From positions 123,994 to 187,993 of the forward strand of contig CBDCEW010000102.1 in NCBI GenBank assembly GCA_965215885.1: DNA of 64,000 nt, in the 5' to 3' direction. The stretch comes from Candidatus Moanibacter sp. GTDB lineage: Bacteria; Verrucomicrobiota; Verrucomicrobiia; Opitutales; UBA2987. A program made the position numbers and the translations under genes. Of the stretch, positions 33,859 to 38,990 are shown piece by piece. Position 1 is the first letter of the stretch. Each line of letters opens with the position of its first letter. The notes under the pieces are model-generated. The model was given only the letters and a program-made list of their open reading frames with translations, was not told the DNA's origin and searched no databases.

Positions 33859-35058
33859 CTAGTCCATCTGTGCCCCGAAGCGCACGACTAAACGTTCATT
33901 TTCATAGCTGGCGTTGTCGATGTCGACGCGGGACAGAGTATCAGGGAGCTGAAGAACCCGGGTGTAACCTCCCGCTTTTATAATGAGTTCACCCTCTTTC
34001 CTGCCGATGTCGAGGCTCTCCCTGTCAAGATTCGGCAGAGTGAACGTCAGGAGGACGCGATCGTCCTCCTTTTCGAATCTGACCGCATTCGGTTCGGAGA
34101 GTACATCGAGGGGCATCTCGTCACCGTAGATTGTCTCTCCGAACCCCCTTAGCATGTTGTGGCCGAGAGGTGCATTATCGAGATAGGGAATAAGAAAAAT
34201 ACGCGTCTCCATAAACGACGAGTGTATCGCCATCAATTCTCTTTGCTGGTGCCGATACGTCTCGCTGAAGTAGCCTGCGGATACTTCTTCCGGTAGGAGC
34301 TTGTTTACGAATATGCCGTCGACTGGAAATCCGAATAGCGCCAGGTAGATATAGGTGCGCCGGGTTTCCGCGATTGCGATCGGATCGGGATTCAAGACCA
34401 GCCTGATTGAGGATTTCCCGGCGTCTTTAAGGAGATCCCCCAGGCGACCGATCTTTTGAATTATGGTTCCGAACGTTTCGTAGAGCTCGTCTTCAGGGAG
34501 TAACTCTCTTCCCAGTTGCGTGCGGCGCGCAAATGGTCGAACCAGTTTCAATATTTGTCTTTCCCAGTTGAGAATCCGATTGAGCTTCTTCGTGGATGAA
34601 TCGCTGAAAGTGAGAAGTCGGAGGGTGCCCGCGGTAGGGGCGGCATCAATGATCACCGCGTCGTAGTTACCGCCCTCGATTTCCCGCAGAATTCGAGTCA
34701 AAAGAAACAGCTCCTCAATGCCTGGAATAAGCGCTACCTCCTCTGCTATGACCGCTTCGACGCCCAGATATGCCATGAATTGTGTGAGGTAACTTTGCAC
34801 CGAATCCCAGTTCTCCGTGATCTCGTCCAGAATGTTCACTTCGAGAAGCGACAGGTTTTCGGACACCTCTATGGCCCGATCGGCCAGGTCTATTTGAAAG
34901 ATGTCGCTGAGATTGTGAGCAAAGTCGGAACTCACGAGCAGAGTCTTTGCTCCGCCAACTGCCGATTTTGCCGCTGTCGCCGCCGCAATACTCGTTTTGC
35001 CAACGCCTCCCTTGCCTGTGAAGAGGAGCACTCGACCTGACGAATCCTGCTCGCTCAT
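33859..35058 (-). CDS. ArsA/GET3-family ATPase with C-terminal HSP20-like domain
   Basis: FTGKGGVGKTS, SSDFAHNL, DAAPTAGTLRLL, C-terminal beta-rich domain. Confidence 0.9.
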   Translation of the reverse strand: MSEQDSSGRVLLFTGKGGVGKTSIAAATAAKSAVGGAKTLLVSSDFAHNLSDIFQIDLADRAIEVSENLSLLEVNILDEITENWDSVQSYLTQFMAYLGVEAVIAEEVALIPGIEELFLLTRILREIEGGNYDAVIIDAAPTAGTLRLLTFSDSSTKKLNRILNWERQILKLVRPFARRTQLGRELLPEDELYETFGTIIQKIGRLGDLLKDAGKSSIRLVLNPDPIAIAETRRTYIYLALFGFPVDGIFVNKLLPEEVSAGYFSETYRHQQRELMAIHSSFMETRIFLIPYLDNAPLGHNMLRGFGETIYGDEMPLDVLSEPNAVRFEKEDDRVLLTFTLPNLDRESLDIGRKEGELIIKAGGYTRVLQLPDTLSRVDIDNASYENERLVVRFGAQMD

Positions 35059-35585
35059 ACTATCTGGATCTTCTTTACGATCGCTGAGGTGATCTTGCCC
35101 TTCTGCATCAGTAGACCGAGGAAATAGTCGACCGCTTCAAGATACTCCTTGATCTCAGCGAATCGCGCCTTGATTTGGGTGATGTCCTTTTTCTCTTCGC
35201 TGCTCTTACCTTCGATACCCTTCAGGTCCACTTCGCCTCTCGCGATCAGCTTGTTGAAGCGGTCCAGTTCGTCCCGTACCAGTGTCGATACGATCTCCGT
35301 CTCAATCTCCCATATGTCTCCCGCAATCTCGTAAAAATTCTTCCGCTCTCCACGGTGATATATCCTGCGGACTACTTTCCAGCGCTCCAAGTACCGGATG
35401 TTCGTCGATACCGACGCTTTCGATACTTCCAGCCGCGCTGCCATGTCGTCCAGCGACATCGCTTCGCGTGATAAATATAACAGCCCTTCCAGTTGGCCCG
35501 CTATTCTTGGGAATCCAAACTTCTCCGCCTTTTCTCCTATGTGGTCAATCCACTCGTTCTTTATGTCTTCCAGTATTCTTGCCAT
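35055..35585 (-). CDS. GbsR/MarR-family transcriptional regulator
   Basis: FGFPRIAGQLEGLLYLS...MSLDDMAARLEVSKASVSTNIRYL...GERK. Confidence 0.88.
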   Translation of the reverse strand: MARILEDIKNEWIDHIGEKAEKFGFPRIAGQLEGLLYLSREAMSLDDMAARLEVSKASVSTNIRYLERWKVVRRIYHRGERKNFYEIAGDIWEIETEIVSTLVRDELDRFNKLIARGEVDLKGIEGKSSEEKKDITQIKARFAEIKEYLEAVDYFLGLLMQKGKITSAIVKKIQIV

Positions 35586-35622: not shown

Positions 35623-35672
35623 TGTTAAATATATATTGAACATACTATACGCCATTGAATTTGAATTGTCAA
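35623..35672 (-). promoter_or_regulatory. sigma70 promoter (TTGACA-17-TATAGT) with a palindromic operator immediately downstream
   Basis: -35 at 35667-35672, -10 at 35644-35649; near-palindrome TGTTAAATATATATTGAACA at 35623-35642. Confidence 0.75.
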
Positions 35673-35868
35673 GGAAAGTCCGATAATTTACTTTTGGGCA
35701 AGGACCGGTGGAGGGGTTAGTAGAGGCACACGGTTTATAGCAGGGAACGCGCACCACCCCGGCACAAGACCCATCGTTCTGAATTTCGGTTGGCACGCAA
35801 ATTGCGTGGAGTTCTCTGGTTAGAGCATGAAGAAAATGGGGAGCAGAGGGAGGGCACTGGAGTCGTTG

Positions 35869-37701
35869 TCAGGAGGCAATCCGATGGGGTTGCGGGTTTA
35901 AGGATTGATCCTGGCGATTACAGACTTCGAAGAGTTCCTCAAGGAAGTTTTCTTTTCGCAGGAGCTTTTTGGGCAATCGACCCACGGCGAGGGTTTTTCT
36001 GTTCGCCCGCCAGTGACTGAAGGGGGGTGCTTTCTGTGCAGCCTGGGCAAGCTTTTGGGGCAGATTATCGATACTGCCTAAAACCAGCTCCACATAGCGG
36101 GGATTGTGTAAGTTGGGCAGGAGCATGTATTCTTCGGGGAGCGCTTCAAAGTCGCGCGTCAGATTTTTGCGCCCGTGGGTTTGACGGCGTTTGCGCTTGG
36201 AGGTGCGCCAGGTGCCTTCCAGCTCATTGGTCGTGCGTACGCTGTCTGGATGGGCCGGTGGGGGAAGCAGCCGCTGCCAGTATTTGTCCAGATGAGTGAC
36301 CACGGTGCGGTAGAGTTTGGCTTTCGAGGGGTTGGTCAGGGAGGCGCCTTTTTGGCGATATTGGGCACGCAGCAACTGGAGAGCCTCGGTGAGCTCAGCG
36401 GCTTGTCCTGCTTGCAACAGATAAGGGTCGCTTAAAGGGCAGGGGCCGCTGGCGCTGAGCCAAAGGGCATCGCGCAAAGCGCTGAAAATGCAAAAAGCGT
36501 TTTCATAGATAGTAGCGGCTTCGATGACGAGGGCATCAGCCAGATACTGCTTCAACCCGGTCGAAAGATGAAAGAAGCTTCGCAGAACAGAGCAACTGGC
36601 AGGAGCGCGGGCAAGCCACTGCTCCAGGGCGGCATGGGCGCGCACGACCCGCCGATGCCAATAAAGCAGGTAAGGATCGAAGGGAAAGCCCTGGCGGTGA
36701 CCGTCGCAGGGATAATCCAAAATCCACAATTGCAGGGCCATGAGCAGTTCCCGTGCAAGGGTGCCCAACCCATCCCTTGGATCGAAGGGCACTGCGAGCG
36801 CTTTGGCGGTGAGCAAATCGGCCAGGACGAGGGCGTGTTTTTCACGGAGGGCGTCACGGAGCTTTGCGGTGATGTGTTTGCGTTGCTCGCGCATGCGCTC
36901 CATGAGCTTCAATTGCCGCAAGCGCCCGTTGAGCATCTGCTGGGGTTTTCGATAAAGCTGTTCGCCCACATTGCGGGCGAAATGATAATGGCAGACGCCA
37001 TGGGGGGCCTGGAAGGTTTCGCTCTCGCAGGCCTTGCTGATCTGAGCGCTTAAATCATGATAGACATGGTGGGGTTGGCCAAAAGCCCGGGCCGCCCGGG
37101 CAAAACAGCCACTGATCGTTTCGCTCTGTTCGGAAGGCATTTTCCAGCTGCCCAAAAGGATCCCTTCGTCGGCTTCCTGAACAGCGAAGAAAACCGGCGT
37201 CTGCGGTTCCACGGTCCCATCCACCAGCCAGCGCAGGCAAGGGCGAGCGCTCAGGTAATCTTTAAGCACCGGAGCGGCCGCGGCGTGCAGCCGACCCAGA
37301 TAAAAAAGAAACTTCTGCTGCATCTCATAGAGGCTGCTTTGAGCAATCTGCAGCTGCCCCGGGCCCTCGCGCAGTTCCCTGTGCACCTCTTTGAGGGTGG
37401 CGCTTTCGCACAAACATCGCTTGCCCACATAGGCAATCAGATCGTAAGCGTAGCGACTATGCGAGGGCACGATCTGTTCCAGGCGAGCAGAACGGTAGCT
37501 GTTGCGGTGGCTCCCTTGCCCCTGCTCGCGCACAACTTCCACCGCCTGGAAGCATCCATAGGAGAAACTGACCACCTTGCGGCGCAGGGTCTTGCGCACC
37601 TCTGAAGGACCCTCTTCGTCCTCCCGGGCATCGAAGCGATAACTCGTTTGCGCAGGCACAGCCCCCACCGTTTGCAGGGCCCGTTCAGCCTCTGCCCGCA
37701 A
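35869..37701 (-). CDS. DDE transposase catalytic part (Mutator/IS256/ISL3-like CxxH type)
   Basis: LVDGT, YHDLS, VCHYHFARNVG, HLDKYWQRL, RTTNELE. Confidence 0.75.
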   Translation of the reverse strand: MRAEAERALQTVGAVPAQTSYRFDAREDEEGPSEVRKTLRRKVVSFSYGCFQAVEVVREQGQGSHRNSYRSARLEQIVPSHSRYAYDLIAYVGKRCLCESATLKEVHRELREGPGQLQIAQSSLYEMQQKFLFYLGRLHAAAAPVLKDYLSARPCLRWLVDGTVEPQTPVFFAVQEADEGILLGSWKMPSEQSETISGCFARAARAFGQPHHVYHDLSAQISKACESETFQAPHGVCHYHFARNVGEQLYRKPQQMLNGRLRQLKLMERMREQRKHITAKLRDALREKHALVLADLLTAKALAVPFDPRDGLGTLARELLMALQLWILDYPCDGHRQGFPFDPYLLYWHRRVVRAHAALEQWLARAPASCSVLRSFFHLSTGLKQYLADALVIEAATIYENAFCIFSALRDALWLSASGPCPLSDPYLLQAGQAAELTEALQLLRAQYRQKGASLTNPSKAKLYRTVVTHLDKYWQRLLPPPAHPDSVRTTNELEGTWRTSKRKRRQTHGRKNLTRDFEALPEEYMLLPNLHNPRYVELVLGSIDNLPQKLAQAAQKAPPFSHWRANRKTLAVGRLPKKLLRKENFLEELFEVCNRQDQSLNPQPHRIAS

Positions 37702-37702
37702 A

Positions 37703-38419
37703 TCATGTAACAGCTCCGCTACCGCGATCGGTCCGGTTTTTTTTGAGCGAGTAAAACGCCATCACCCGCTCAATTTGCTCCCCGCTCAGCTCTACTCCCT
37801 GCTCTTGCATAAGCTCGACAAGCTCCTTGACCCCGGCCTCGGGATGGCCGATACAGGCGACCAGCAAAGCGATCACGACCATCGTTTCGAGCCCTTCGGG
37901 AGCTGCCTGCAAAGCGCCCCCGGGGTCCCCTGCCTGAACTTGTGCCGCTGTTCTTCGCCCTTGCCGCCGCTTTTTCTGTTCGGCCCCGCCCTGTTCCCCG
38001 GCCGAGACATACACGCAGTGACGCCCTTCATAGTATCGACTCAACCGCTTCTTTCTACAAAGCACGCTTATGGGGTTGTGCACCCGTACCCCAAGGAGGG
38101 TCTCCAACTCAGCCACCGTGTAGCCGCAAAGCGAAGCTCCCACCACCGCCTCCACGGTCTCCTCCAAGGTGCCGTGGCGCGAAAAGCGCCCCTTGCGAAA
38201 ACGCCACAAACCGGCCCCGTCAAAGCGCGGAATGTCTTTCAAGCTCAGGTAGCCACAATTGGCATTGTAACTGGAGTAATGGCCATATTTTTGCAAAGCC
38301 CGATAGACCGTTCGCCGCGACACCCTCTGCTCCTTCATCAGCCTCCACACCGTGCTTACCCGATCCCGCCGTACCGCTTCGACCACCTCCCTCTCTTTAC
38401 GCGAAAGCTCTTCTTGCAT
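37703..38419 (-). CDS. Transposase-associated N-terminal ORF (HTH-like), ending just after an A8 run
   Basis: VSRRTVYRAL HTH-like segment; YSLKKN at the A8 tract 37737-37744. Confidence 0.65.
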   Translation of the reverse strand: MQEELSRKEREVVEAVRRDRVSTVWRLMKEQRVSRRTVYRALQKYGHYSSYNANCGYLSLKDIPRFDGAGLWRFRKGRFSRHGTLEETVEAVVGASLCGYTVAELETLLGVRVHNPISVLCRKKRLSRYYEGRHCVYVSAGEQGGAEQKKRRQGRRTAAQVQAGDPGGALQAAPEGLETMVVIALLVACIGHPEAGVKELVELMQEQGVELSGEQIERVMAFYSLKKNRTDRGSGAVT

Positions 38420-38806
38420 GCACCGGCACAGTATGGAAAGGAGGCAAAACTGCAAACTCTATTTTACATACAATGCCAATACCAACTTTCTCCAGCTCCC
38501 TTCGCTTCTACTCAATTGCCACCAGAAATCAACTCCCCGTTCAAAGCGCTTTTGTAACTGATTAATACTCAACAAGTTTCTAACTGAAAACAAACCTGCA
38601 GGAAAAGCTCTCTACCTCTAACGAACCCACACACAACAATCGTTGAAACTCCATTCTGGCATACTATGTAATCAATAGAATCTTGCAAGTGCCTGAATAA
38701 CATTTACTTTGGGTTCTCCAACCCAATTTCGTAATTATGGGCACAAGACCGGGGCAGCCAGCAATCAAAGAAACACTAAGTACGTACCTGCCGCTCGGCA
38801 GAGCGC

Positions 38807-38908
38807 CTAGGAATATGTCGGTGGTCGAATCCCCCCGCAATGCACCATCCCACCTGAATAGTGGATTATCTCCGCGAGCTAAGACAGCTAAGTCCGACAG
38901 ATTTCTAG
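38807..38908. mobile_element. MITE family B copy
   Basis: ctaggaatatgtcgg...ccgacagatttctag; aligns over its length with the reverse complement of 50534-50634. Confidence 0.8.
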
Positions 38909-38990
38909 CCCGGACATTTCAGACACATCGTAGCGAGACTGTCCCGGCTCGCCGGGATCGCAGCAGATGGTTTGTGAGATGTTCGGGCTA
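38905..38990. mobile_element. MITE family A, internally shortened copy, sharing CTAG with the family B copy
   Basis: ctagcccggacatttca...tgtgagatgttcgggcta. Confidence 0.8.

Follow-up and report, generated by a model that had tools for sequence, protein, structure and literature searches.

A multicopy insertion sequence with an IS256/Mutator-fold transposase at the centre of REP-like palindromes in Candidatus Moanibacter

The window analyzed here, a 64,000-nucleotide stretch of DNA from Candidatus Moanibacter sp. (GenBank assembly GCA_965215885.1, contig CBDCEW010000102.1, positions 123,994 to 187,993), carries an insertion sequence (IS) at 35771–38740. The element sits in an intergenic gap and breaks no gene. 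Its coding part consists of two open reading frames (ORFs) on the minus strand, a 610-codon ORF at 35869–37701 and an upstream ORF at 37703–38455, both of which had been recognized in an earlier sequence-only reading of this DNA. We compared the locus with the rest of the host genome assembly (G000; 6.36 Mb, 105 contigs, 90.3% complete, 5.5% contaminated), with 105 related loci (25 from genomes and the best 80 of 136 from metagenomes, together giving 133 distinct ends) and with contigs of public sequencing runs. Contigs of G000 are designated C, related loci L and public sequencing runs X, each followed by a number. The left end of the element is the side upstream of orfA (38740 side), the right end is the 35771 side, and OrfB residues (D161, D216, E495, C237, H240) are numbered from 37701. 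The main features are as follows.

35771–38740, minus strand: insertion sequence, 5'-CCAT...ATGG-3' (from end counts, family ends and a contig of run X3)
38718–38740, minus strand: left terminal inverted repeat, 23 bp, upstream of orfA (17/23 identical to the right repeat; motif kept in relatives)
35771–35793, plus strand: right terminal inverted repeat, 23 bp (pairs with the left repeat)
35762–35770, plus strand: first copy of the 9-bp target duplication, GCACAAGAC (flank comparison; 9-bp model from relatives)
38741–38749, plus strand: second copy of the 9-bp target duplication (flank comparison)
35700–35770, plus strand: inner arm and left half of the host target repeat, which resembles repetitive extragenic palindromic (REP) sequences (38 genome hits covering at least 70%)
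38741–38779, plus strand: the right half of that repeat, with its outer arm (genome-wide repeat comparison)
37703–38419, minus strand: orfA, which starts at the ATG at 38419 and encodes 238 aa; predicted tandem winged-helix/helix-turn-helix protein, N-terminal part of the fusion
37737–37744, minus strand: A8 run where orfA and orfB meet, the likely slippage site; in the window copy, orfB is +1
35869–37736, minus strand: orfB frame, with RNase H-like DDE domain, CxxH motif and long helical insertion (alignment, model and structure matches)
36765–36779, minus strand: 15 nt (5 codons) present in the window copy and absent from the contigs of all eight public runs compared

The host genome contains 33 left and 33 right ends of this element, of which 30 can be paired, that is, roughly 30 copies that are ~99% identical. 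The window copy is 2970 bp long and most copies ~2955 bp; protein P0001 also lacks the five residues encoded at 36765–36779. The element was previously thought to have no terminal inverted repeats (TIRs) and to start at 35690. We found instead 23-bp TIRs, 17/23 identical, at 35771–35793 and 38718–38740, with a motif that is conserved across the family of related elements. The true boundary is 35771, and the sequence at 35700–35770 is half of a dispersed host repeat outside the element, which shortens the supposed ~180-bp non-coding end to 98 bp. At the other side, the non-coding 5' end measures 321 bp up to the orfA ATG at 38419, close to the ~330 bp first estimated. The terminal base was placed at 38740, where one contig of run X3 exits the element into a flank that is not REP-like. 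Across the family, the base outside the NAT motif is G in 130/133 distinct ends, giving 5'-C...G-3' termini, with which all 66 ends in G000 agree. We conclude that the element is a real, recently multiplied insertion sequence with conventional-looking chemistry.

Because the target is palindromic, duplications of 7, 9 and 11 bp are each compatible with most G000 sites, and the relatives were therefore used to decide. Both ends are available in 51 related loci; direct matches were exact at 9 bp (terminal C) in 10 of these and at 11 bp in 5, with 11 matches at the nested 7 bp and none at any other length, including 8 and 10; chance matching across loci was 10/2550. An 11-bp duplication with CAT ends was rejected, as the outward position 11 is C in only 69/133 family ends, against the G in 130/133, and five loci match exactly at 9 bp and not at 11. 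The element thus has 5'-C...G-3' ends and a 9-bp target duplication. In G000, a direct 9-mer within one mismatch flanks 16/30 paired copies. One copy, at C105:15923, lies outside the REP-like repeat and has its own duplication, and contig C38 carries an element-free allele of the C81:19154 site with the target site present once. For the window insertion itself, none of 40 relatives (none of the same genus) matched the locus, and no outgroup empty site was found. The alignment of multiple copies, which the sequence-only reading had named beforehand as its refuting test, shows conventional TIRs and a target duplication; given these and the empty allele on another contig, the different excision/integration chemistry proposed for the element is unsupported.

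The duplicated 9-mer GCACAAGAC is the centre of the palindrome CCCCGGCACAAGACCGGGG, of which 86 uninterrupted copies (51 exact) occur elsewhere in G000. These palindromes often form head-to-head pairs inside a larger fold-back repeat (18 pairs under 200 bp). The target site lies within 3 mismatches of the REP half-site at 59/66 element ends, with a background of 4.5e-5 per position and strand; two of the remaining ends are variants of the site, judged by eye, and five are at other sites. Insertions occur in both orientations and break the repeat at one fixed position, as defined for REP targeting of ‘type 1’. The preference extends to relatives. In the flanks of the 133 distinct ends of the family, which come from Thermodesulfobacteriota, Planctomycetota, Acidobacteriota, Pseudomonadota, Chloroflexota and others, a common palindromic GC consensus is seen, with G in 112 ends at outward position 12 and in 109 at position 15; in five other phyla, relatives insert in similar palindromes. 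In two other genomes, G043 and G045, the target is likewise a dispersed repeat: that of G043 has 31 matches and the same fold-back layout, and a sister element in G045 lies in a different repeat with 47 matches.

The direct repeats that had been taken for the ends of the element are thus really the duplicated centre of the REP-like palindrome hit by the insertion. The motifs themselves occur where they had been reported, TGGGCAAGGACCGG at 35695, GGCACAAGACC at 35761 and 38740, TTTACTTTTGGG at 35687 and TTTACTTTGGG at 38703, with the one at 35695 in unique flank adjoining the inner arm of the host repeat. The TTTACTTT(T)GGG pair, once considered as paired ends, is a chance match: its copy at 38703 lies inside the element and its copy at 35687 in unique flank, and 115/300 stretches of 180 nt taken at random from the genome have an 11-mer in common with the 321-nt end when one edit is allowed.

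The full target repeat is a ~250-bp fold-back element with two head-to-head palindromes around a long inner hairpin, with a TAG(C) motif ahead of each palindrome, and it also occurs in collapsed forms. A Pirellulaceae genome (G043, L212–L241) has a repeat laid out in the same way. A cognate REP-associated tyrosine transposase was not found: only 1/29 Y1 loci checked lay within 1 kb of a core, and this one is a 152-codon IS200-like gene on C101. In total, G000 has 39 Y1_Tnp matches (L021–L050), including nine near-identical 152-codon IS200-like genes and many 290–440-codon frames. At L059:1499-4468, a single repeat cluster contains the element and, 80 bp from it, the left end of another copy, together with a sister-clade element's end; all lie in neighbouring palindromes, on a short-read contig that may be chimeric.

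An IS4-family element (131.6 bits against an NCBIfam cut-off of 115) occupies the same palindrome centre in six full copies. It is 1375 bp long, encodes a 371-aa transposase and has a duplication of ~10–12 bp (G000:C96:58973-60346, L242), with five more full copies on C38, C44, C71, C81 and C85. As this element is unrelated, the site attracts more than one DDE enzyme. No match to it was found by blastn in E. coli genomes. We take it to be IS186-like, IS186 itself being placed in the IS4 family.

OrfB bears the D/D/E triad and CxxH motif that the sequence-only reading had described: D161, D216, C237 and E495 are invariant in all 114 long family members aligned and H240 is present in 113 of them. 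The distance from the second aspartate to the glutamate is 247–310 residues (median 279, 114 members). The OrfB model (predicted local distance difference test, pLDDT, 85.7) found by Foldseek its best match in ISCth4 of the IS256 family (E 1.1e-5), then Hermes and, more weakly, the P element; the VIA comparison gave Z 12.7 and a root-mean-square deviation of 7.4 over 316 aligned residues. No Pfam family passes its cut-off, and the NCBIfam IS256 model NF033543 scores 27.9 bits against a cut-off of 150. Weak matches among 59 aligned members were to IS256 (37/59), MULE (26/59) and IS66 (11/59). No NCBIfam model reached its cut-off in these 59 members or in 33 more distant ones, where the best IS256 score was 42.3 bits; the IS66 model NF033517 (cut-off 180 bits) gave at best E 2.2e-7 in the 59 and 34.6 bits in the 33. 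By model and alignment, we conclude that OrfB is a predicted DDE enzyme of the IS256/Mutator fold, yet outside the described families.

OrfA (model pLDDT 90.7) matches winged-helix structures, with tandem winged-helix domains, and orfA is present upstream of orfB in 83/84 related loci with room for it. The two genes meet at a run of adenines. A run of 7–10 A is found in 89/89 related loci with a readable junction, the orfB frame being open back to the run in all of them, and orfB relative to orfA is −1 in 69, +1 in 19 and in frame in one, L141, which forms an 829-codon ORF. Within G000, the run is A9 (−1) in 15 and A8 (+1) in 13 of 28 matched copies. Contigs of the public runs show both forms, with only A8 in X3 and X11. 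In the window copy, loss of one A from A8 would give 849 residues (2548 nt). Natural fusions joining most or all of OrfA to OrfB number eight among the 150 representatives listed; a word search for long fused forms returned one internally deleted protein only. Mixed frame directions on a poly-A run are a published sign of transcriptional realignment (PMC3711429), and IS elements with transcriptional slippage have been described (PMC1088944; PMC3711429); these and the other papers cited here are used in extract. The conserved run with mixed directions, together with the natural fusions, suggests that a fused OrfA–OrfB transposase of ~850 aa is likely made, in line with the fused protein first proposed, and the slippage is probably that of RNA polymerase.

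We consider it unlikely that the fusion arises by −1 ribosomal frameshifting, as in IS1, IS3 and ISMich2, with the +1 copies dead or complemented in trans. The −1 layout is the commonest (69/89) and A_AAA_AAA is a known ribosomal shift site (PMC3711429), but +1 copies make up 19/89 relatives and 13/28 copies in G000, across several lineages, and A8 is the sole form in the contigs of runs X3 and X11.

The long left end contains a recurring 15-bp box, found by alignment of 14 left ends and present three times.

38657–38671, minus strand: box 1, 70 bp inside the left end
38464–38478, plus strand: box 2, inverted relative to boxes 1 and 3
38424–38438, minus strand: box 3, just before the orfA start; the weakest in the window copy (~8 bits)

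All three boxes exceed 8 bits in 46/58 non-redundant left ends and in 0/58 reversed controls, and no box was found in 85 right ends. The ends are thus asymmetric, as had been suspected, in what lies inside the TIRs and not in the sense of direct-repeat ends. Gap lengths between boxes 2 and 3 fall into two clusters, 18–19 and 25–31 bp, which differ by roughly a helical turn. Box 1, which has no partner, follows lineage: it is closer to its own box 2 than to those of other ends (4.65 vs 3.88 of the last five bases, with kin not being independent). The left end was also considered as an RNA, as earlier suggested, and this was rejected: it has no Rfam match up to E 1 and no unusual folding (z −1.3 to +0.9). 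Since the conserved inverted pair is two of the three boxes, with box 1 unpaired, it is better read as DNA boxes than as RNA. A promoter scan of the left end returned nothing at threshold. Judged from sequence conservation, the three boxes fit protein-binding sites and are likely, most simply, a putative OrfA operator at the transposase promoter; we favour the view that unfused OrfA would bind them and repress its own promoter.

The data show where the element ends, what it duplicates, how many copies there are and how restricted its targets are, as well as the conserved triad, the layout of the frames, the natural fusions and the three boxes. The whole is best explained, with good confidence, by a recently multiplied insertion sequence that has 23-bp TIRs, duplicates 9 bp in the middle of a GC-rich palindrome and encodes a probably fused transposase of the IS256/Mutator fold. 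In the proposed mechanism, RNA-polymerase slippage on the A8–9 run would yield the ~850-residue OrfA–OrfB fusion, the element would move by copy-out/paste-in through a circle, and it would insert with a 9-bp duplication at the centre of the palindrome in the dispersed host repeat. The circle pathway is suggested by analogy to IS256/ISCth4 and seems to us rather probable.

Several observations weigh against this explanation. Among the 30 paired copies in G000, 14 lack a matching direct 9-mer (9 inverted, 5 other), and of the 16 relatives with at least 300 bp of flank on both sides, 8 have direct 9-mers, 2 inverted and 6 neither. The likeness of OrfB to ISCth4 is modest (template modelling score 0.23–0.33, 10–11% identity), and the in-frame fusions could be sequencing or replication indels. 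No end-to-end circle junction is listed in the contigs of the eight public runs, contigs being prone to drop rare forms; skip joints in runs X2 and X11 may stem from the repeat's other copies. Lastly, in ten reconstructed targets, arms of the same site pair better than arms of different sites (4.7 vs 3.6 of 8, permutation p 0.007), which leans to a hairpin reading, though several of the ten targets are from one element.

With respect to the flanks, five of the inverted G000 copies cannot derive from one repeat pair and the same flank recurs on different G000 contigs with different partners, which argues for recombination between copies or mis-joins. Non-matching flanks would be products of events later than insertion, namely recombination between copies, adjacent deletion or mis-joined assembly. 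The first two of these are known to leave elements without duplications (PMC11708052). The shorter contigs of relatives (n = 38), in which collapsed assembly is expected, show five direct 9-mers. We conclude that most copies with non-matching flanks fit rearrangement or mis-assembly, and that in several the inside of a palindrome pair seems to have been replaced. As to how the target is read, we lean slightly to a symmetric transpososome that would read a palindromic double-stranded consensus of ~21 bp, fitted by chance by REP-like repeats; that the transposase reads a folded hairpin is a tentative alternative.

A further account of the same element combines these two issues. In it, the transposase would recognize an extruded hairpin or cruciform and the two ends would join the two palindromes of an inverted pair, or the sister palindrome would be struck afterwards, such that the inside of the pair is replaced and inverted 9-mers are left. 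Both copies of the G045 sister element and the single full G043 copy do lie between outer arms with the inside gone, two to three copies in G000 also fit, arms co-vary within sites and the IS4-family element uses the same spot. However, a single pair cannot give the three inverted G000 copies with two like-type arms or the two with two inner arms, and 0/18 intact pairs typed have two like arms. Identical flanks occur on different contigs with different partners, collapsed pairs also occur without any IS, some targets are poor hairpins (L147, L122 and L123), and the known removal of duplications by recombination and adjacent deletion (PMC11708052) speaks against it as well. We regard this account as doubtful. 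The same holds for its strongest form, which we find improbable, namely a sixth prokaryotic Mutator-like family with a slippage-made transposase, three winged-helix domains and a double-length insertion, that would read folded hairpins across phyla and put one end into each hairpin of an inverted pair, so that the inside would be replaced and no target duplicated. If true, this would be a site-directed deletion-insertion reaction and a natural safe-harbour integrase.

Retaining an insertion sequence with conventional ends and a 9-bp duplication, we compared the element with known systems. IS256/ISCth4 (p-MULT 1; PDB 6xg8, 6xgx) shares with it the RNase H-like DDE core, helical insertion, CxxH motif, short TIRs and an 8–9-bp duplication. 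ISCth4, on which the proposed circular copy-out/paste-in pathway is modelled, is 1.5 kb long, with one ORF, a 47-kDa transposase and an A/T-rich target preference (PMC7780238), whereas our element is 2.95 kb long, has two ORFs and a probable fused product of ~850 aa, and is specific to GC palindromes. The single ORF and the absent or A/T-rich target consensus of IS256 contrast with two ORFs in 83/84 loci and a GC palindrome consensus. The p-MULT superfamily is described with inverted repeats of 18–39 bp, direct repeats of 8–9 bp, a C/D(2)H motif 11–19 aa after the second aspartate and a helical insert of 99–138 residues (PMC3942029); a circular intermediate is another of its traits. The element shares the DDE triad with helical insert, the C(2)H motif, a 23-bp inverted repeat and a 9-bp duplication; C237 follows D216 by 21 residues, which puts it at the upper edge of that range or slightly beyond. 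The triad, C(2)H motif and repeat ranges are also common to p-MULT 2–5 (ISH6, ISLre2/TnGBS, ISKra4/ISMich2/ISAzba1 and the Mycoplasma integrative and conjugative element). The spacing of 247–310 residues, compared with the 99–138-residue insert of p-MULT 1–5, makes the insertion domain about twice the described length. The element ends in 5'-C...G-3', unlike p-MULT 1–5 as described, whose ends keep a terminal cytosine; the p-MULT rows compared (the first rows of Table S1, all p-MULT 1) run 5'-G...C-3', with the C at the 3' terminus. As extracted, p-MULT 2–5 target promoters, whereas the element targets palindromes and has +1 and −1 junctions and a tandem winged-helix OrfA. ISMich2 (ISKra4 family), compared by description only, has two ORFs joined by a conserved −1 frameshift. 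ISLre2 and ISKra4 insert 13–17 bp upstream of a sigma-A −35 box; for the window copy, taken singly, the nearest −35 match is ~99 bp from the end.

Fixed insertion on the palindrome axis is shared with the REP-targeting IS1397, ISKpn1, IS621, ISPsy8, ISPa11, ISPpu9/10, ISRm19 and ISRm22 (PMC1525189). In the same extract, the fixed-site elements belong to IS3, IS110 and IS4, and the only IS256 member listed, ISRm5, lies merely near REPs. Unlike these, the element has a palindrome preference conserved across a Mutator-like clade in several phyla. IS186, a DDE element, reads GC-rich palindromic flanks around a variable core in either orientation (PMC5009759) and differs from the element in family and consensus. 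A conserved A8–10 run that joins orfA and orfB in both directions is known from IS630 and DDE_Tnp_1 clusters, and the extracted descriptions name no Mutator-like two-ORF family (PMC1088944; PMC3711429).

Sister groups differ within the family. In G045, three other sister elements have, in 5/6 copies with both flanks, exact duplications of 8 bp that lie at unrelated sites (by eye); these elements carry a cysteine cluster, and the 59 close members do not. A quick tree separates the 9-bp targeted group from the sister groups; as the 9-bp group had been picked via that alignment, its clustering is in part by construction, and L064 fell out of the tree.

The proposal that the element is a poorly classified IS holds in that no Pfam or NCBIfam family reaches its cut-off. 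The homologues (120 listed of 282) are 41–48% identical outside the element's own cluster and unnamed or ‘hypothetical’, and a profile search returned 434 clusters (50% identity) at E 1e-30 or better and 1673 at 0.001. A PDB sequence search with the transposase gave no real match, nor did a search of the genome contigs collection with a single element protein give any. A literature search, whose coverage left out subscription journals and ISfinder, found no description of the family. The family may already stand in ISfinder among the unclassified (ISNCY) groups, with only the details being new. These groups include the two-ORF, MULE-like IS892 group, and the fifth Atlas match is auto-named ‘ISNCY family transposase’ (506 aa). 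However, the three nearest Atlas clusters are unnamed or bear only ‘MULE domain’, no NCBIfam model reaches its cut-off in the 59 and 33 members, tblastn in plasmid and phage collections gave no match, and the TIR motif was not found in the p-MULT supplementary table, within the first 400 characters of long cells. A prior listing of this kind appears to us to have a low probability. We conclude that the element is apparently an unnamed family-level variant of Mutator-like IS, in which the palindrome targeting, slippage-joined ORFs, enlarged insertion and three-box end stand out.

The original model of a direct-repeat-bounded element with non-standard excision/integration chemistry or an end-encoded RNA is very improbable: the same 11-mer does occur in the same direction to either side of the element, and the long left end does hold a conserved inverted pair with changes on both sides (9/17 predicted pairs), but TIRs and a 9-bp duplication are present, the flanking 9-mer varies with the site and flips with orientation, the ‘repeat’ has 86 unoccupied copies elsewhere in the genome, the inverted pair is two of three boxes with one box lacking a partner, the left end has no Rfam match, and the model is refuted by the empty allele together with the copy that lies outside the REP-like repeat and carries a duplication of its own.

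Several G000 copies (C105, C99, C96, C79, C72 and C89) carry nested insertions of ~1.9 kb or more at recurring positions, and others are broken near codons 397 and 521. On the 35771 side of the element in the window, 35055–35585 (minus strand) encodes a CudC/GbsR-like MarR regulator (75.6 bits, below cut-off) with a strong sigma-70-like promoter at 35644–35672, followed by an ORF at 33859–35058 that resembles an ArsA-type ATPase by eye. On the 38740 side lie a dispersed non-coding repeat at 38788–38909 (31 genome hits covering at least 70%) and a second repeat at 38905–38990 (10 such hits; 282 hits for its ends), with inverted arms at 38906–38926 and 38970–38990.

For a family of 434 clusters whose proteins are labelled ‘hypothetical’, the ends, the duplication, the expression trick and the target are now defined. 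The family also offers a natural contrast, between the clade of the element, with 9 bp at palindromes, and sisters with a zinc-finger-like motif, with 8 bp at unrelated sites or another repeat. With this contrast, the old question of how a DDE enzyme selects REP repeats can be addressed by swapping domains, and such an enzyme with specificity for palindromes could be of use for integration at non-coding sites.

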